Source of the DNA: Candidatus Baldrarchaeum yapensis | GTDB lineage: Archaea > Asgardarchaeota > Baldrarchaeia > Baldrarchaeales > Baldrarchaeaceae | Reading direction: 5' to 3' | Assembly (NCBI GenBank): GCA_016840465.1 | Contig: JAEOSH010000069.1 | Location: 1 to 9,751 of the forward strand | DNA: 9,751 bases | Shown: positions 1-9,732 of the stretch, in pieces | Position numbering within the stretch: position 1 is the first letter of the stretch | Layout: each line of letters begins with the position of its first letter | The notes under the pieces: generated by a model | What the model saw: the letters and a program-made list of their open reading frames with translations, nothing else | Told to the model about the DNA's origin: nothing | Database searches by the model: none | Position numbers and translations under genes: made by a program

Positions 1-298
1 CGTCGAACTCTATGAAGTATTCGATCGTCGACTCATTGATACTTCCCTTCAGGCGAACACTTGCAGACTCATGAGTCGAGAACCCGTATATGATATCTTT
101 AACTTCCTTGAACCCAAATTTCACCCTTACAATCTCTTCGATGTTATGACCCTTGAAAATGAATTTCACGAGGTGCAAAACCTTCACGATGTTGCTTTTC
201 CCCGAAAGATTTGGCCCTATCAGGGCGTTAAACTTCCCAAGCTTTAACCTTACGTTACGAAGTGATAAGAGGTTCTTGACTTCCAGTTCTGAGATCAT
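1..298 (-). CDS. ABC/SMC-type P-loop ATPase (AAA_15/AAA_21-like), N-terminal part, runs off the window edge
   Basis: Manual translation, not in the ORF track: MISELEVKNLLSLRNVRLKLGKFNALIGPNLSGKSNIVKVLHLVKFIF... The 'I..LEVKN..S' start and Walker A GPNLSGKS are typical. Open to position 2; alternative in-frame ATG at 310. Confidence 0.85.
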   Translation of the reverse strand, partial: MISELEVKNLLSLRNVRLKLGKFNALIGPNLSGKSNIVKVLHLVKFIFKGHNIEEIVRVKFGFKEVKDIIYGFSTHESASVRLKGSINESTIEYFIEFD

Positions 299-426
299 TT
301 TAAGCACCATGTATGCTTTAATCTACTGGTTTGGTCAATTCATTTGTTGCCACATTAATGTCATCTCCTTAAACGTTTAAAAATTGACTTGCTGTTAAAG
401 TGGCTCACCGAACCTAGGCCTTCATG

Positions 427-1537: not shown

Positions 1538-1617
1538 ATTAATGTGAGTCTGAGATTTCCCGAGGAGAATCAAGAGGGTGCAAGACGTAAGCAAGGTTGA
1601 ATTATGGGGGATGAATA

Positions 1618-1974
1618 ATAGCTAAAAGTGCCGTTTGGTATCCAGTAATCTTTCCGGATAGATGTGATGGATGCAAAAACCGTGAGGTCCCCAGATGCGT
1701 CGAGTTCTGCCCTCATGGTGTCTTCGGGATACGTGAAGGGAAAGCAGTTGTGCTGAGACCTCAAAACTGTGTATATGGATACACATCATGCGAGTTCATT
1801 TGTCCAAGAAGAGCAATTGCTTTTCCCCAGCATACTATGATCTTTCCCAGGATAAAGAAGGAAGATAAAGGCTTGCTCCGTAAAGTTACATGTAGAATCT
1901 GTGGGAAAGTCTTCTGGACAAACAGAGATGTGGATATATGCTTTGATTGCGAAGCTAAACAAAAGTGTGTATGA
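1618..1974 (+). CDS. Dicluster-type ferredoxin with C-terminal Zn-ribbon (118 aa, probable ATA start)
   Basis: The frame is open from 1615, after TGA 1612-1614: (M)AKSAVWYPVIFPDRCDGCKNREVPRCVEFCPHGVFGIREGKAVVLRPQNCVYGYTSCEFICPRRAIAFP...VTCRICGKVFWTNRDVDICFDCEAKQKCV. GGGGGATGA RBS-like sequence sits just upstream. The track's GTG 1750 start would delete the first Cys motif. Confidence 0.85.
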   Translation: MAKSAVWYPVIFPDRCDGCKNREVPRCVEFCPHGVFGIREGKAVVLRPQNCVYGYTSCEFICPRRAIAFPQHTMIFPRIKKEDKGLLRKVTCRICGKVFWTNRDVDICFDCEAKQKCV

Positions 1975-4047: not shown

Positions 4048-4067
4048 TCTCAGAAACTTCTCGTCCT

Positions 4068-4090
4068 TTTACGATTTTTATTTATTTTCC
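4068..4090 (+). terminator. T-rich archaeal terminator candidate
   Basis: Several T tracts (ttttacgatttttatttatttt) about 20 nt after the ligase stop codon. Confidence 0.35.
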
Positions 4091-4269
4091 GGGATTATTT
4101 CGTAACTTCAGAGGTTAAGCAACCACAATTAAGTGGACAAGAAACAGCGTTAAGAGAAGTCTTCCAGATATAAACATGTTCTTCCCCATCCACTGGCAAG
4201 AAGTCTGTCAAATTTGCAATACTCCACGTATACTGGTGACATGAGCACGATTTCTCGAAAGCTTCGTAG

Positions 4270-4510
4270 TTCTGATCGAAAAACAAGAGATGCATCAGGT
4301 GGGAGAACACAATCCTCGCCCTCACCATGTGCTAGGACCTGCGGAACATCCCATTGAGCCCTAAAAGCTATCCCAGATCCCTGTGCAACTCCTCGAACGC
4401 CCATCAGTTACTCCGGTAATGTAGTGTGGTCCATAAGACATAGGTTTGCACGTCTCCAGTAGCAGTTGAGGATTCCTCCTTCTCCTGTGCATGAGAAGAA
4501 ACCGGATAGC
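4270..4510 (-). pseudogene. Decayed IS4/IS701/ISH3-like DDE transposase C-terminal remnant
   Basis: Minus-strand reading 'IRFLLMHRRRRNPQLLLETCKPMS', then after a frameshift 'HYRSN*WAFEELHRDLG*LLGLNGMFRRS*HMVRARIVFSHLMHLL'. This resembles the Y-x2-R-W-x-I-E-x2-H-R-x2-K catalytic-Glu region; several stops. Boundaries approximate. Confidence 0.45.
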
Positions 4511-4898
4511 TTCATCAAGGTGATTCTTCTTTCAAGTTTTACCGTAATCCGGCACGAACCTCAGCAACTCCCTCTTAACCTCTCACTGATGAACATTGTG
4601 AGAATCACAACACTTTATCGTGGTTGTCCGTGCCTGATCTCTCAGATATTTTGAATATTTTCGGCACGGACTTTCCTTCATAGGGTCAGGTTCTTATCCC
4701 CGCACCGGGAGGATGTCGAGGTACTCATTGGGGGCACCTGTAAAGTAATCAACCATCGCATTGATATGGAGCGGGACGTTTAACGTTCAAGTTAACACTC
4801 TCAGATCGACGCCCGGCTGTGAGTGGAAATGCTAATGTTAAATTTATTATGAAACAGTTTCAAATTTCGCTAAAGGATTTTAAGGCAAGTGTCAGGTG

Positions 4899-5234
4899 TT
4901 AAAAGCGCAAAGCTTTAATGCTTCTACTGATACGTGACACGAGTATTTCTGCCGCCAGATCTAAGATCTTTAAGACGCGAGGATCAGAAATTCTGTAATA
5001 GATTGATCGACCGCGTCTTTCGGCGATCAGGATACCGCTTTCCACCAAGTTCTTAAGATGTTGCGCGACTGTCGACTGCGACCTTCCCGTCGCAGGGATT
5101 ATATCACACTGGCAGATGCTCTCCTCTCCGTGTTCCATTATCACTTTCAATATCTTTAGACGTATAGGATCTGATAATGCTCTAAAGAATCGTGCCATAG
5201 TGTCTAGGAAGCTTTCTTCCATTAAATGATTCAT
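4899..5234 (-). CDS. arsR: ArsR/SmtB family transcriptional regulator with alpha3 CxC motif
   Basis: 'ARFFRALSDPIRLKIL', 'ESICQCDI', 'SQSTVAQHLKNLVESGIL' and 'ERRGRSIYYRI' give a winged HTH. ATG 5234 follows GGGGTG; the track starts at GTG 5243. Confidence 0.93.
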   Translation of the reverse strand: MNHLMEESFLDTMARFFRALSDPIRLKILKVIMEHGEESICQCDIIPATGRSQSTVAQHLKNLVESGILIAERRGRSIYYRISDPRVLKILDLAAEILVSRISRSIKALRF

Positions 5235-5266
5235 TAGGACCACCCCATGAGATCGCGATTAATTAC

Positions 5267-5274
5267 TTTTAAAA
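5267..5274. promoter_or_regulatory. Candidate bidirectional TATA element (TTTTAAAA) between arsR and the Fe-S/dsr operon
   Basis: Palindromic TTTTAAAA about 33 nt from the arsR ATG and about 29 nt before the operator-like motif. Confidence 0.4.
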
Positions 5275-5302
5275 TACCACAGATTTCCATCTTATGTATT
5301 GG

Positions 5303-5331
5303 TATATCGTAATATGCTGATATATCAATAT
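5303..5331. promoter_or_regulatory. Operator-like motif, copy 2 (TATATC-N10-GATATA inverted repeat; ATAT-N4 x4), probable ArsR site
   Basis: TATATCGTAATATGCTGATATATCAATAT has ATAT at 5304, 5312, 5320 and 5328, and lies in the divergent arsR intergenic region. Confidence 0.7.
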
Positions 5332-5349
5332 GTCGGAAAAATCGAAGAG

Positions 5350-5949
5350 ATGATGCTTATGCATAGAAAATCCGATAAGAGCCTGCTGAGCCTTCTGATA
5401 GGAAATAAGCTTGTTAGAAATGTAAAAATAAACGAAATACTGCCATGTATTTCCGATAAAGAGAGAATACGTGTTGTATGTCAAGTGGATAGGGAATTAA
5501 CCGATGTGCTTCCAGTGCTCTACCTCTACATTCCGAATGCGACATATAACGAAAGGACTGGTGCACTCACTTTCATGTACAAGCAACACATGATTACGAT
5601 ATTTAAATCGGGGAAAATAACGGGGACATACATGCGCGACCGTAAGGAGGCGGAGCAGATAATGATGGAAGTAAAAGACCTGATAAACAGAGCGATAGTG
5701 TATGTAATGACACACGGTCCCCCCTCTAAAGACTTAATAGCATCGAAGAAACCCGTTTCCGCGTTAACGGTACAAAAGCACCTTCCGGGAACAAACTGTG
5801 GAAAATGCGGAGAGAAGACTTGTTATGCGTTTGCGGTTAAGGTATCCACGGGAGAGAAGGATATTGATGAATGTCCGGAGTTGAAATTGCCTGAAAATCT
5901 GGAAAAGTACCATGAGCTTAGGAAACTACTAAGGCCAATAGTCATCTGA
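5350..5949 (+). CDS. COG4871-like protein: N-terminal TBP-like fold plus C-terminal putative Fe-S domain (PF04060-like)
   Basis: 'PCISDKERIRVV...LTF...MITIFKSGKIT...D..EA' N-domain and 'LPGTNCGKCGEKTCYAFAVKV..GE..IDECPEL' four-Cys domain. Start is probably ATG 5350-5359; the track's TTG 5299 overlaps the operator. Confidence 0.85.
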   Translation: MMLMHRKSDKSLLSLLIGNKLVRNVKINEILPCISDKERIRVVCQVDRELTDVLPVLYLYIPNATYNERTGALTFMYKQHMITIFKSGKITGTYMRDRKEAEQIMMEVKDLINRAIVYVMTHGPPSKDLIASKKPVSALTVQKHLPGTNCGKCGEKTCYAFAVKVSTGEKDIDECPELKLPENLEKYHELRKLLRPIVI

Positions 5950-5952
5950 ACG

Positions 5953-6288
5953 GTGGTACCCTTGCGAATCCTACTGGCAATTACGAAATCCAGTTATCCG
6001 GCAAATCTTCTCTCTCTGATCAAATTATTCATTAGAACCTGTTTCGAGAAGCAACATGCCGTGTCAATGTACTTTCTTGGAGACGGCGTATACGCATTGC
6101 GCCTTTTTAAAGATCTCATAGATGAAGGAGAATCTGGGCTGATAGAGGTTTTTGTGAGAAAGGAGGATGCCGAGGCGAGAGGAGTAACTAAGTTCATTCA
6201 GACAAATCGCGTAAGATTTCCTAAGGACTTCATGAAGCGCTTAGTCATGAGCGTTATGGAGAGAGCGGATAAGGTGGTATTCTTATGA
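5953..6288 (+). CDS. DsrH/TusB-like subunit (DsrE/F/H fold, lacks the catalytic-position Cys)
   Basis: 'MYFLGDGVYAL' and 'EDAEARGV', ending 'ADKVVFL'. Possible TTG start at 5962; ATGA overlap with the next gene. Confidence 0.7.
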   Translation: MVPLRILLAITKSSYPANLLSLIKLFIRTCFEKQHAVSMYFLGDGVYALRLFKDLIDEGESGLIEVFVRKEDAEARGVTKFIQTNRVRFPKDFMKRLVMSVMERADKVVFL

Positions 6289-6671
6289 GTAAAACTCTGA
6301 CAATAGTGCTCCTCAGGGAACCATATGCAAGTCAGTACGCCGATATAGCACTCGAGATCGCAGAGATGGCCTTAAATTTGGGATACAAGGTTCGATTGTT
6401 CCTCTACATGAGTGGGGTACATGCAGCCAAGCGGGGTCAATCGCCGTTGAGATTTCCTAACTTTGAAAGAAAATTGCGGGAACTTTTGACTCGTGGATTG
6501 AAAGTTATCGCATGCGGTAGATGCGCCTCAGCAAGAGGATACATCGAGAATTCTGCAAACGAAGAGGGTAATTTTTCAACATCTCAGTATGTGGAGGGAG
6601 TCAAAGTTATGAGCATATACGAGCTTGCGGATTGGATTAAAAACTCTGACAGGGTAATAATGTTGGGGTGA
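6285..6671 (+). CDS. dsrE: DsrE/TusD-like sulfur-carrier subunit
   Basis: 'LTIVLLREPY', 'LFLYMSGV', 'ACGRCASARG' and 'L..WI..SDRVI'. The first Cys is 8 residues before the G of RG, as for TusD Cys78. Confidence 0.88.
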   Translation: MSKTLTIVLLREPYASQYADIALEIAEMALNLGYKVRLFLYMSGVHAAKRGQSPLRFPNFERKLRELLTRGLKVIACGRCASARGYIENSANEEGNFSTSQYVEGVKVMSIYELADWIKNSDRVIMLG

Positions 6672-6677
6672 TGGGCG

Positions 6678-7034
6678 CTGGAGCCGGAATTGATACTTAT
6701 TCTATCAAAACCGCCTTACGGTAGCGAAGATGTTATCAGTATGCTTTTTATAGCATTAGCGGCGGTATCCCGCGGAATAAAGACTACTATTATTTTAATA
6801 GATGATGGTGTTTACACAGCCTTACGGGATCAGAGGCCGGAGGGGTTAAAATATCCCAGCGTCGAAGATCTCATATACCTGATCATAACCGATGCCGAGA
6901 TCTTCGTTCATGAAGATTCTCTGAAGGAAAGGGGTATCAGCGGAGAGGATTTGATAGAGGGAGTCAATGTTTCATCTGATGACGAAATAGTAGAGGTGCT
7001 TCTCACCAAGACTGGTGCTTTCCTTTTGTGCTGA
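6678..7034 (+). CDS. dsrF: DsrF/TusC-like subunit
   Basis: 'ILSKPPYGS', 'ILIDDGVY' and 'VHEDSLKERGI'. The frame opens after TGA 6671; CTG 6678 fits the GGGGTGA RBS (track start TTG 6690). Confidence 0.85.
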   Translation: MEPELILILSKPPYGSEDVISMLFIALAAVSRGIKTTIILIDDGVYTALRDQRPEGLKYPSVEDLIYLIITDAEIFVHEDSLKERGISGEDLIEGVNVSSDDEIVEVLLTKTGAFLLC

Positions 7035-7124
7035 GAAATACACGTAAGTGGATGTGGATAAAGAATACTTATGTTATAAAACGGATCTCGTTCATTTAGT
7101 TTTCCCCGAGACCTCCCTTGTCAT

Positions 7125-7295
7125 CTATAGGTTTCTCTTTATTTTCTGAATCTCTCTTACCTTTTTCAGCACCCATAGATAACGGCTTATCAAGGTTCTT
7201 TTCTTTCTTAGACGATAAGTCATTGACCCCGTGGTTATTCCAGTCTTCTTCGCCTCCCTATAATGCTTAAAAATATCTTCCTCCGGCTTGTCCAC
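7125..7295 (-). CDS. Possible 56-aa Lys/Arg-rich small protein or gene fragment
   Basis: GTG start after GAGGGA: MDKPEEDIFKHYREAKKTGITTGSMTYRLRKKRTLISRYLWVLKKVREIQKIKRNL. Absent from the ORF track (shorter than any listed ORF); no family recognised. Confidence 0.3.
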   Translation of the reverse strand: MDKPEEDIFKHYREAKKTGITTGSMTYRLRKKRTLISRYLWVLKKVREIQKIKRNL

Positions 7296-7483
7296 ACTAT
7301 TCCCTCTTCATGTTTTCGAATTTAAAATGATTAAAAAAATTGTCGAGACAATATGTATCAGGGAACAATTAGTGCGACTGTAAGTAAAAACATCAGACAT
7401 CTCCTCGCGAGCGTATTGTATAGAAATAAAGGTAAGGAAAATCAACTATTCCGAAAAATACTCCCGTTGAAAGAATTGACTAC

Positions 7484-7990
7484 TCAGGAAGAGTTATAGT
7501 AAACGTAGATTTTGACCGTGCCGCTCTTCTCGGCGGTTACCTCCTTAACAGTATATGTAACCTTGATGTAGACATCGTACGTGCCCGCACTGACAACTTT
7601 GGACTCGCGGAATCCGGTATCCGTGTTTATTAGGTTAAAGACATAACTCGCACCATCTTCCCCGGATTTAAATAGTTCGATTGTTACGTTGAACACCTCA
7701 AAGTCTTGGGTTGTATTTAGATCCAACTCGAAAGTTATCTCATAGTCTGCCGCGAGTTGCAACGTCGCAACACTTCCAAAGTCTTTTGTGCCCGAAGAGC
7801 CAGAGGGAATGGCCCCCAGATCTAAGCTTACAACGTCAGGGCTGAAGGTGGGACCCGGTAGAATCCGGTATCCGATTTCAACCTTGCCGATAAGTACTAA
7901 TGCGACTGCTACGCCGACAATCATAAGGATTGTCAACATCGCCACGACACTTTTGGAAGATATTTTGCTGACACCCGCGACCCTATCCAT
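7484..7990 (-). CDS. Exported or membrane-anchored beta-rich surface protein, unknown function
   Basis: N-terminal hydrophobic segment 'VVAMLTILMIVGVAVALVLIG', then S/T/G/V-rich beta-strand patterns and NTT/NVT sequons. GGAGGAG RBS; 13 bp downstream of the PLD gene. Confidence 0.75.
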   Translation of the reverse strand: MDRVAGVSKISSKSVVAMLTILMIVGVAVALVLIGKVEIGYRILPGPTFSPDVVSLDLGAIPSGSSGTKDFGSVATLQLAADYEITFELDLNTTQDFEVFNVTIELFKSGEDGASYVFNLINTDTGFRESKVVSAGTYDVYIKVTYTVKEVTAEKSGTVKIYVYYNSS

Positions 7991-8003
7991 GGCCGCTCCT
8001 CCA

Positions 8004-8618
8004 CTACTCCTCGCTCAGTATCGTTTCGAAGTACTCCTTATATTCTTTTGCAATCTCTTCGCTGACTATTTTTATGGATGTTTCGCGGTTATAGTAGAGA
8101 GCCGCCTCGCTCCAGTTGTGGGATCCCACGTACACTATGTAATCGTCTATTATTACAAGCTTCATGTGGTCAGTTTCAGTATCATTGTCCAGATAAACAG
8201 TAACGTTGTGAGAAGAGAGGTAGTAGTACGCCTCGAGGTTATCGTCCAATGTTTCCCAGTAGGTTCTGTACTCGATGATCACGGTGACATTGACGCCCCG
8301 CTCTTTTGCGTAGACGAGTTCTCTGATAAGGTCATTGGCCCAGTCATAAGGATCGTCAGGGTCGTATATCATTGAGTACATTGCGACCATTATGCTCTTG
8401 TTTGCGCTCCTGAGATCCTCAATCAGAGAATAGTAGTATTCTTTGTCCCGAAGTACGTAAACCTCGTACCCTATTTGGTAATTTACCCCAATCTCCCCTA
8501 TTTTTGTAGAATCACTCGTGGTCCCATTCGAACTTCGGGATCCCGTTCCGTACCACATAAGCATCCCTAAGAATAGGAATATTAAGATGCACGCCACGGC
8601 GTTTCTGAGCATGCGCAT
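8004..8618 (-). CDS. Membrane-anchored single-HKD phospholipase D/Nuc superfamily protein
   Basis: 'HMKLVIIDDYIVYVGSHNWS' = HxK(x4)D(x6)GSxN, plus 'A.ERGVNVTVI' and 'NRETS'; N-terminal TM/signal segment. Alternative ATG at 8612. Confidence 0.92.
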   Translation of the reverse strand: MRMLRNAVACILIFLFLGMLMWYGTGSRSSNGTTSDSTKIGEIGVNYQIGYEVYVLRDKEYYYSLIEDLRSANKSIMVAMYSMIYDPDDPYDWANDLIRELVYAKERGVNVTVIIEYRTYWETLDDNLEAYYYLSSHNVTVYLDNDTETDHMKLVIIDDYIVYVGSHNWSEAALYYNRETSIKIVSEEIAKEYKEYFETILSEE

Positions 8619-8639: not shown

Positions 8640-8935
8640 TATACGTGTTGCTGTCAAACTTTTATTTTTCGTGAGGATGCGGAATGCATAGTAGCTGGAA
8701 TTTTTGTAATTGAAAGAGTTGAGAATGTCTTAGGCCTGCAGAGAAGCGCTACAGAGCGTAAAGGTAAACAATAACATGAAGGGTGTTCGGAGAAAGTAAA
8801 CTCCATTTATTTTGAGGTTAATCCAAAAAGAGGACGCACCTGCTCTGCCTATTTGATGATTCTAGGCTGAGGTGAGATGTCTCTGAGGATGTTGTATTGT
8901 GAAAAGTGTAGGAGAGTAGAGCCCACCAAAAGGTT

Positions 8936-9732
8936 GTCCTTTGTCAAACCCTACACCTCAATCACCCCCGCCACCTATCAGCACGAAGAGGCCGGCCAGC
9001 GCCTCCAGCCTCAGCATCCGCTTAACGTTGTGCGCCGCCGCCCTGAAAACAACAAACGAGGCCACACTCTCAGGATCCCTGTACCGTACCTCCCGAACAC
9101 GGTCGAACACCGCCGCTCCACGCTCACAGTTCTTCCTCCTGCGATACATCCGGGCCGAGAAACCCCCGGCCGCCCGACGAAGAATGCGACACGAAAACAC
9201 GCGCGACGGCCTAACCTGAAAGTCGATGCCCCTCTGAAACGCCTCCACGCAGTTCCCCCTCACGAAAAACTCGCGATCAGCGTAGAGAATCGAACCACGC
9301 GGAATCACACCCATGGCCTCCGAGATGTCCCGCGACCTCGTCGCCCACGCGAACATGTCCACCCCTATGTCGTAGATGAACTTTATGTCGACAACCGCCC
9401 TCGAAAGTACGACCCTCCCCCGCACAAACCTCTCCTCGAGAAACCCCACCGGAACGGCGGTCCCGTCCGCAACGAACTCCTCCGCATCGCCGCACCCCGA
9501 GAGGCCCCGAATGAGTAGGCCCCCCTGACATCTCAACCAGTTCAGGAACTCCAGAACTCACTGCCGGAGGCGGGGGTTCCTGTAGTGGTAGCGCAGAGTT
9601 TCCGCGATCGGGACCCTGTGCCTCGCGTCACCGGAAACCCTCATGTCGATCCCGGCCTCGATTGCGCGCCCCCTTATACCTTTGAAGCTGATGGGCTGTG
9701 GGGACATTTCCTTCAGGATCAGGAGGGCTACC
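8936..9732 (-). mobile_element. IS5-like insertion sequence, truncated by the contig end
   Basis: Visibly GC-richer than the flanks and carries a DDE transposase. Candidate terminal IR GTCCTTTGTCAAACCC (8936-8951) resembles IS903-group ends, but the partner end is not in the window. Confidence 0.7.
8958..9732 (-). pseudogene. DDE transposase (IS5-like) with one in-frame TGA at 9558-9560
   Basis: Track ORFs 9558-9749 and 8958-9536 are the same frame, joined by TGA-VLEFLNWL. Catalytic triad: 'FVADGT' (D), 'ILYADREF' (D), 'YRRRKNCERG' (E); ends with 'AAAHNV'. Confidence 0.8.

Follow-up and report, generated by a model that had tools for sequence, protein, structure and literature searches.

A conserved archaeal module of a DsrE/F/H-like trio and a TBP-fold Fe-S protein, divergent from an ArsR-type regulator: a candidate stress-inducible dithiol or persulfide relay

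To our knowledge, the workings of DsrE-family relays are clear only for those that deliver to DsrC or TusE. What could such a trio of proteins serve in an archaeon in whose genome neither of them was found? The question is raised by a contig of Candidatus Baldrarchaeum yapensis (JAEOSH010000069.1), which was analyzed over its whole length of 9.75 kb (hereafter the window) and belongs to a 2.27 Mb genome in 100 contigs that is 96% complete. In the window, an operon of four genes, encoding an Fe-S protein and three DsrE/F/H-like proteins, is divergent from arsR. An earlier reading made from the letters alone (hereafter the sequence-only reading) had described an inducible sulfur relay with the Fe-S protein as its partner and a co-regulated ferredoxin as its source of electrons. 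Our analysis upholds the partner by synteny and gene fusions, does not bear out the orthology of the trio with TusBCD/DsrEFH or the ferredoxin, and adds an arsenic-resistance context and a CxxC dithiol. We propose that the module may be a metalloid- or sulfur-stress-inducible dithiol/persulfide redox relay in which the Fe-S protein, as acceptor or reductase, replaces DsrC/TusE/TusA, a proposal that we hold with about as much belief as doubt.

Gene organization and conservation of the module

The module and its regulator comprise five genes:

4899 to 5234, minus strand: arsR, 111 amino acids as called on identical contigs, with the ATG at 5234 as the likeliest start (the open reading frame, ORF, extends to a GTG at 5243)
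5359 to 5949, plus strand: Fe-S gene (COG4871 in the sequence-only reading), 196 amino acids from the ATG at 5359, which fits the homologues (the ORF opens at 5299, with alternative starts at 5314 and 5341)
5953 to 6288, plus strand: DsrH/TusB-like gene, 111 amino acids
6285 to 6671, plus strand: DsrE/YchN-like gene, 128 amino acids, overlapping the DsrH-like gene by ATGA
6690 to 7034, plus strand: DsrF/TusC-like gene, 114 amino acids, with a TTG start and GGAG 7 to 10 nt upstream

The intergenic gaps in the order FeS-H-E-F are 3, −4, and 18 bp, and the divergent intergenic region between arsR and the operon is 124 bp. The coordinates of all five genes, the tight packing, and the single ATGA overlap given by the sequence-only reading were confirmed. 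Fourteen other contigs, one of them 218 kb long, encode identical proteins in the same arrangement.

Homologues of the Fe-S protein and the DsrE-like protein were collected by exhaustive phmmer searches and genome scans in place of a word-index search, which had given 1 and 3 homologues, respectively. Exhaustive phmmer with the Fe-S protein returned 666 representatives at E ≤0.001, including 160 at E ≤1e−10, and a genome search within the organism's own class, where there are only five species, was little informative. One scan of genome contigs with the DsrE-like alignment yielded 33 related loci, and the Fe-S gene was within 5 kb in 29 of them, namely, inside or directly beside E-F-H in 27 and within 4 kb in two more. 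For two of the four exceptions, the contig is short or ends there. The module occurs in at least five archaeal lineages (Asgard archaea, Bathyarchaeota, Methanobacteriaceae, Methanomicrobiales, and Methanothrix), and this synteny across phyla comes in four gene orders: FeS-H-E-F, as in the window, E-F-FeS-H, FeS-E-F-H, and H-E-F...FeS. The main groups of related loci are arranged as follows:

Bathyarchaeota metagenome-assembled genomes (MAGs): Fer4-Trx-Trx-Trx-ArsP-like, divergent from ArsR-E-F-FeS(384 aa)-H; the DsrE protein is 60 to 62% identical
Approximately 25 Methanobacteriaceae species and one Methanomicrobiales MAG: E-F-FeS-H, mostly after a DUF166 gene
Methanothrix and the metagenomic contig L168: FeS-E-F-H
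Jordarchaeia: H-E-F and a divergent ArsR; the Fe-S gene follows at a distance of 4 kb, past a GcvH-like gene, two DGC-domain genes, and a thioredoxin-like gene

Among 400 Asgard genomes, all nine with a close DsrE orthologue (E <1e−39) also possess a full-length Fe-S orthologue (E ≤1e−52), which is found in approximately 29 of the 400 genomes overall; the nine represent only three lineages, and their co-occurrence is therefore not independent. Neighborhood and co-occurrence thus bear out the conservation of the Fe-S gene with the trio, on which the sequence-only reading depended, and the Fe-S protein is supported, as far as gene order and homology can tell, as a dedicated partner of the trio.

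Further genes recur around the module and its Fe-S gene. A DUF166 gene, whose best NCBIfam match is "(seleno)protein DfsP" below the cut-off, directly precedes E-F-FeS-H in approximately 20 Methanobacteriaceae loci (L130–L149), and in the genome of the window organism, a DUF166 gene (C56:45187–45876) adjoins the gene for a 603-aa CdhE-like protein with the same FeS domain. In Asgard genomes (L016, L072, L081, L082, L085, L091, and L093), and also in L012/L073, a recurrent cluster of small ferredoxin, GcvH-like, two DGC-domain, and thioredoxin-like genes is located beside the TBP-fold Fe-S gene and ArsR. Some of the GcvH-like proteins are fused to a DGC domain, and a lipoate-protein-ligase-like gene is sometimes nearby. 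This GcvH/DGC/ferredoxin cluster may be a second uncharacterized dithiol system in the same regulon.

Domain composition of the Fe-S protein

The Fe-S protein matched PF04060 with 55.9 bits (cut-off 23), whereas its score for the TBP family (PF00352) was 18.2 bits, under the cut-off of 22.9 and over one repeat only. An AF2 model with a mean pLDDT of 94.9 was used for a Foldseek search. The N-terminal half matched single repeats of archaeal and eukaryotic TBPs (rmsd of 2.0–2.9 Å over 81–84 aligned columns, 17–24% identity), and the C-terminal part matched the N-terminal [4Fe-4S] domain of CFeSP (2ycl_A, 37% identity over 54 residues), in agreement with the PF04060 match; the matches 2ycl_A, 4c1n_G, and 4djd_C were at 35–37% identity. 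The PF04060 match and Foldseek show that the name "TBP-like/Fe-S protein" used in the sequence-only reading was correct, and by its modeled structure the protein is TBP-like in fold, with one repeat, and not a TBP.

In the alignment of the family, the C-terminal CX2CX4CX16C motif (C153, C156, C161, and C178) is invariant, and the N-terminal cysteine in a "PC" motif is invariant or nearly so; this cysteine is invariant in all the architectural forms, fusions included. The C-terminal 55 to 60 residues, with all four Cys ligands, are similar to those of the CFeSP large subunit (AcsC/CdhE; 2ycl, 4c1n) and also of RnfB. Unlike CFeSP, the Fe-S protein has no corrinoid-binding or TIM-barrel part, and its cluster domain is joined to a TBP-like repeat with an invariant cysteine. 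One fused form (P0104) contains a full class-V aminotransferase, of cysteine-desulfurase type (330.9 bits), and other forms are fused to a PF11823 "putative Se/S carrier" domain (P0065, E 1.5e−15). Forms of approximately 265 to 283 aa (P0024 and P0030) have a winged-helix-like N-terminus with weak HTH_20, HxlR, and HTH_5 matches (E 0.001–0.009, below the cut-offs), and forms of 370 to 384 aa carry an extra N-terminal half with no family assignment. In the 384-aa form from Bathyarchaeota, the first 205 residues were compared with the family as a possible duplicate, but no such duplication was detectable (hhalign probability of 0.6%).

A fold of one TBP repeat also suggests a different function, in which the Fe-S protein would be a sensor or regulator: its TBP fold would bind DNA or ArsR, its cluster would sense redox state or sulfide and tune ArsR-dependent transcription, and DsrE/F/H would be one output. 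The winged-helix-like extensions of P0024 and P0030 are consistent with such a role, as are the positions of the Asgard genes, which are very often same-strand neighbors of arsR (FeS-ArsR, DGC-FeS-ArsR) and stand without the trio in most genomes. However, the gene is embedded between the dsrF-like and dsrH-like genes in approximately 25 Methanobacteriaceae species and in Bathyarchaeota, and the fusions to a cysteine desulfurase and to the Se/S carrier domain point to sulfur chemistry. Moreover, all the HTH matches are below the Pfam cut-offs and most N-terminal extensions match nothing, DNA binding by a lone TBP repeat is putative, and the C-terminal domain resembles an electron-transfer module (2ycl_A). 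We consider the sensor function unlikely.

Sequence features of the DsrE/F/H-like trio

The DsrE-like and DsrF-like proteins matched PF02635 with 84.3 and 53.8 bits, respectively (cut-off 22.7). The DsrH-like protein reached 21.2 bits for PF04077, just below the cut-off of 24.4, and all 26 DsrH-like orthologues matched this family (best E 3.7e−13). Cys77 in the CGRC motif of the DsrE-like subunit aligns with Cys78 of DsrE (2hy5_A) and of TusD (2d1p_A), and both cysteines of this CxxC, Cys77 and Cys80, are invariant across 28 orthologues. No conserved cysteine was found in the alignments of the DsrF-like (28 orthologues) and DsrH-like proteins. The alignments therefore confirm the earlier statement that the Cys78 equivalent lies in CGRC on the DsrE-like subunit and that the other two subunits lack it. 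A DsrE-like selenoprotein family with UxxC is listed in a review (PMC13188914), and the DsrE-like subunit has the matching CxxC, with its first residue at the Cys78 position. The invariant CxxC and the UxxC selenoprotein relatives argue for a redox-active pair and dithiol chemistry, not mere persulfide carriage.

DsrEFH of Allochromatium vinosum (2hy5) and TusBCD of Escherichia coli (2d1p) likewise consist of three co-encoded small paralogues of the DsrE/DsrH fold, with the reactive cysteine only on the E/D-type subunit at the Cys78 position. The module differs from both in its H-E-F order, its second invariant cysteine, its Fe-S partner gene, and its ArsR-type regulation and context. The best NCBIfam matches of the trio were the TusD, TusC, and TusB models, but all three scores were below the equivalog cut-offs (TIGR03012, 43.7 versus 89.25; TIGR03010, 40.2 versus 94.15; TIGR03011, 29.9 versus 49.2), which indicates that the trio is not orthologous to TusBCD/DsrEFH. 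The closest solved sequence to the DsrE-like subunit was E. coli YchN (1jx7, E 1.4e−7), which has CKTC at the aligned position, and by sequence comparison this subunit is of the YchN type. YchN is a homo-oligomer encoded alone, whereas the module has two Cys-less paralogues and an Fe-S partner; since the function of YchN is unknown, the comparison gives no mechanism.

Could the trio still be a conventional TusBCD/DsrEFH relay for tRNA 2-thiouridine or Dsr-type sulfur oxidation, with partners encoded elsewhere? Its three paralogous subunits, Cys77 at the Cys78 position, and the identity of the best models would agree with this explanation, but the scores far under the equivalog cut-offs, the extra Cys80, the greater closeness in sequence to YchN, and the ars-type regulator and context would not. 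The window contains no tusA, dsrC/tusE, dsrAB, or cysteine desulfurase gene, as the sequence-only reading had stated, and the whole genome yielded no match to TusA (PF01206), DsrC/TusE (PF04358), rhodanese (PF00581), or the DsrAB-type family NIR_SIR (PF01077). Class-V aminotransferases are encoded elsewhere in the genome, one of them with a score of 505 bits. With no TusA or DsrC/TusE match anywhere in the 96%-complete genome, the usual partners do not explain the trio, and a dsrC/tusE gene outside the window, which the sequence-only reading had left open as a full explanation, was not found. Furthermore, archaeal s2U34 is made by an Ncs6/Urm1-type route. The classical reading was rejected on the equivalog cut-offs and the missing partners, and we regard it as scarcely credible.

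Another E-F-H trio, more distantly related, is common among Asgard genomes (L103–L123, family f31 and others). Its DsrE-like protein is 35 to 43% identical to that of the window and has a CxxC (CGLC). The genes are in the canonical E-F-H order with no Fe-S partner gene or ArsR nearby, and an extra divergent DsrE-like gene is often present.

Prediction of the complex of the trio with the Fe-S protein

The physical partnership put forward in the sequence-only reading was examined by complex prediction, with E, F, and H modeled together and the Fe-S protein as the scored partner. The median score was 0.53 (runs of 0.52, 0.53, and 0.59), compared with 0.00, 0.00, and 0.26 for the controls. Contact agreement among the runs was at least 72%, and the pLDDT was at least 79 for the partner and 92 for the E+F+H chains. 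This result corresponds to "weak support," a mark that 58 of 80 solved complexes and 2 of 110 mismatched pairs attained. Scores of ≤0.60 included only 7 of those 80 solved complexes plus both false passes, and at a score of 0.53, a pass is thus wrong more often than it is right, unless there is a good prior. As synteny provides a reasonable prior, the complex score was counted as a modest addition only.

ArsR and the divergent promoter

The window ArsR matched HTH_5 (43.2 bits) and NF033788 (77.8 bits, cut-off 55). Its sole cysteines are those of CQC in ESICQCDI, and the motif C[VQ]C[ED]I is common to 10 of the 11 ArsRs adjoining related modules; we take this motif to correspond to the α3 ELCVCD As(III) site of R773 ArsR. 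The winged helix and the CxC preceding the recognition helix are those of an As(III)-sensing, α3-type ArsR. A BigR/SqrR-type regulator was rejected (27.7 versus 155 bits for BigR, and no persulfide-sensor α2/α5 Cys pair), as was identity with TsoR (47 bits, cut-off 115). A persulfide switch of the BigR/SqrR type is unlikely because the window ArsR has no further cysteine.

The divergent region contains one candidate binding site:

5297 to 5330, no strand: candidate ArsR operator, an inverted repeat TATTGGTATATC-N10-GATATATCAATA with 12-nt arms that are 92% complementary

Ahead of the Fe-S gene, this repeat overlaps a TATA-like stretch rich in A and T. Inverted repeats of AT-rich sequence also occur in related intergenic regions, in some cases with ATATC/GATAT half-sites. 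The repeat can be only weakly proposed as a putative ArsR operator, as AT-rich DNA weakens the case. A scan for σ70 promoters, whose model is not applicable to archaea, gave 6 hits against a shuffle mean of 5.8.

Arsenic-resistance context of related modules

Genes of arsenic resistance were found beside the module or its Fe-S gene in several loci from unrelated lineages:

Methanobacterium oryzae: ArsR-DGC-ArsC-like-DUF166-ACR3-E-F-FeS-H, with the module as the tail
Asgard contig whose Fe-S protein is the nearest homologue (47% identity): ArsR-DGC-FeS-ArsR-Usp-ACR3, next to ArsP-like, thioredoxin-like, and ArsC-like genes
Contig L168: ACR3...ArsR-FeS-E-F-H and, on the other strand, an ArsC-like gene
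A probably bacterial contig: ACR3-ArsP-Trx-DGC-(desulfurase-FeS fusion)

In addition, ArsC-like genes precede the module in approximately 10 Methanobacteriaceae or Methanomicrobiales loci, and ArsE-like thioredoxin genes are among its recurrent neighbors. The ACR3 proteins of these loci scored 335–466 bits (equivalog cut-off 282.8), and the low-molecular-weight (LMW) phosphatase-like genes, here called ArsC-like, matched arsenate reductase models best, yet below the cut-offs. This recurrent ars context makes metalloid or thiol stress the likely inducer and role of the module. As in classical ars operons (arsR-arsC-acr3, arsP, arsD/arsA), a CxC-type ArsR is divergent from or upstream of the module, and module relatives share an operon or locus with ACR3, ArsC-like, and ArsP-like genes. 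Unlike in those operons, the four module proteins are outside the described ars families, and the window lacks genes for a pump or an arsenate reductase. In Thioalkalivibrio, arsenite has been reported to regulate DsrE/F-like genes, without an explanation.

Clostridioides difficile and other anaerobes have an SAO system, proposed to handle metal or organometal species, which includes SaoD, a DsrE-like protein with an invariant CxxC encoded beside the ArsP-family exporter SaoE and the thioredoxin-like SaoT (Haft, bioRxiv 10.1101/2022.07.06.499078). The Bathyarchaeota relative of the module has neighbors of the same kinds (ArsP-like and thioredoxin-like), but SaoD is single, without F/H paralogues or a TBP-fold Fe-S partner, and SAO is bacterial and selenoprotein-rich. 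The SaoD model gave no match at E ≤0.01 for the window DsrE-like protein, and no SAO genes were found in the window.

The SaoD precedent is also consistent with a DsrE-like hexamer that acts as a metalloid chaperone or buffer, whose CxxC would bind As(III)/Sb(III) and hand it, like ArsD, to an exporter, without sulfur transfer. An invariant vicinal-type dithiol on the sole reactive subunit would suit this function, and so would the repeated location beside ACR3 and ArsP-like permease genes under a CxC ArsR. By contrast, the window organism has no ACR3 or ArsP match in its genome, the module is alone in Methanothrix, and a chaperone would leave unexplained both the conserved Fe-S partner and the fusions of that partner to a desulfurase and to the Se/S carrier domain. 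The chaperone function therefore appears improbable to us. Another explanation is that the module handles selenium, in the delivery or detoxification of selenide/perselenide, and not sulfur or arsenic. It is suggested by the fusion of the Fe-S protein to PF11823, "putative Se/S carrier"; by the selenoproteins included in the DsrE-like (UxxC) and DUF166 families (PMC13188914); and by matches, below threshold, of thioredoxin-like neighbors to the (seleno)protein models TsoX and SaoT. The window genes contain no Sec codon, however, the neighbor matches are all below the cut-offs, and those context genes that have names relate to arsenic and not to selenium; we consider a selenium function very unlikely.

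Ferredoxin-like open reading frame

The electron donor of the sequence-only reading was sought in the window, where a single ferredoxin-like ORF is present:

1615 to 1974, plus strand: 119-codon ORF, ferredoxin-like, encoding two Cys clusters and, C-terminally, CxxC...CxxC

This ORF is 2.9 kb past arsR, behind the acyl-CoA ligase gene and approximately 850 bp; the stretches 4050–4899 and 7035–7483 were also checked and gave no match to a ferredoxin or to any other family. The ligase gene is missing in one strain with identical module proteins, and the co-regulated ferredoxin was accordingly not substantiated. The ferredoxin-like frame opens with ATA ATA and has no ATG, GTG, or TTG before 1750 (codon 46), and two short out-of-frame ATG mini-ORFs (1604 and 1611) are located just before it; the missing start could be explained by a non-canonical AUA start or a frameshift. 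The encoded protein is 38% identical over 78 aa (E 3e−14) to the ferredoxin of the Bathyarchaeota ArsP-Trx operon that is divergent from the module, a similarity that makes an association of the ORF with the module possible.

Flanking genes of the window

The flanks of the identical contigs hold unrelated genes, namely, those of the acyl-CoA ligase and the PLD-like nuclease and PIN/MazE pairs, the last located nearby on the longer contigs. At the start of the window contig, positions 2–310 (minus strand) encode the N-terminus of an AAA_15/AAA_21 (AbiEii-like) ATPase. The PLD-like nuclease gene occupies 7484–8618 (minus strand; PLDc_2, 84 bits, with weak DrmC/NucT matches) and is followed by the gene for a 168-aa protein that has an N-terminal hydrophobic segment and belongs to no family. 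The nuclease, the ATPase, and the PIN/MazE pairs suggest that the module is in a variable, defence-like region.

No convincing gene was found in the stretch of approximately 850 bp that separates arsR from the acyl-CoA ligase gene (4050–4899). The minus-strand ORFs 4095–4328 and 4150–4404 overlap there and have no family match, and the gene caller on identical contigs reported an 84-aa ORF only. At the other end of the window, the stretch 9001–9500 is GC-rich (61% versus a genome average of 46%) with a strongly negative GC skew (−0.32), and it is covered by ORFs on both strands (8877–9518, plus; 8958–9536, minus). The plus-strand ORF had no Pfam or NCBIfam match, and the stretch had no Rfam match. 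Rfam and tRNA scans of the whole window likewise gave no match.

Discussion

The module can be read as a relay in the following way. ArsR, of the As(III) type with a CxC, would most likely occupy the inverted repeat of the divergent promoter, and a thiol-reactive metalloid, or possibly reactive sulfur, would tie up its cysteines and cause its release. The operon would then yield two components: a DsrE/F/H-like hetero-oligomer, in which the DsrE-like CxxC protein would be the only reactive subunit and the Cys-less paralogues a scaffold, and a partner composed of one TBP-fold domain with an invariant cysteine and a CFeSP-type [4Fe-4S] domain. Cys77 would take up sulfane sulfur or a thiol-bound metalloid adduct, and this load would be resolved by Cys80 or handed to the cysteine of the partner. 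The [4Fe-4S] cluster of the partner would bring low-potential electrons, probably from ferredoxin, which would regenerate the dithiol or free the sulfur as sulfide. If its cysteine and cluster accept and reduce sulfur in this manner, the Fe-S protein would hold the place of DsrC/TusE or TusA. The physiological role of the relay may be arsenic or sulfur-stress defence in anoxic, sulfidic habitats.

Several points weigh against this relay, the range in which the complex score falls being one of them. CxC ArsR sensors can answer other thiol-reactive species. The genome of the window organism yielded no ACR3, LMW-type ArsC, or ArsP match and encodes an unlinked ArsB-family permease only, so that an arsenic role is not evident in this organism itself, and no ars genes are near the module in the Methanothrix loci and in about half of the Methanobacteriaceae loci. 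The Methanobacteriaceae loci, moreover, belong to one lineage, and such kin are not independent. Most Asgard Fe-S genes occur without the trio, with ArsR, DGC-domain, GcvH-like, thioredoxin-like, ferredoxin, and ACR3 genes as neighbors, which means that the partnership is not exclusive to DsrE/F/H. Full-text literature searches, finally, brought up no publication about COG4871, and none that describes DsrE/F/H modules in ars operons or together with an Fe-S partner. By comparison of sequences with what is published, a DsrE-family relay with this partner family and this context would be new, SaoD and the arsenite-regulated DsrE/F-like genes of Thioalkalivibrio being the nearest published ideas.

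A bolder and more specific form of the proposal, which we regard as quite unlikely, is that the module is an arsenic-resistance determinant of anaerobes, a thio-arsenic/persulfide reductase driven by the Fe-S protein. Cys77 would strip sulfane sulfur from thioarsenate or As-S adducts, or give sulfur to them, and the [4Fe-4S] protein would resolve the resulting persulfide or disulfide with electrons from ferredoxin. If true, such a reductase would couple the arsenic cycle to that of sulfur in sulfidic hot springs, fens, and paddy soils, in organisms from Asgard archaea to methanogens.

For the dithiol/persulfide relay proposed here, the meaning is wider. Many archaeal DsrE/F/H-like genes have no assigned acceptor, and for one subfamily of them the Fe-S protein is now a candidate, as acceptor or as reductase. 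Its own family, on which we found no literature, joins a cluster of the CFeSP type to a TBP-like fold. Asgard archaea, Bathyarchaeota, and several methanogen orders share the four genes as a mobile module, and the repeated occurrence of this module at ars loci suggests that arsenic defence in anaerobes draws on sulfur or dithiol chemistry, beyond the known ars genes.

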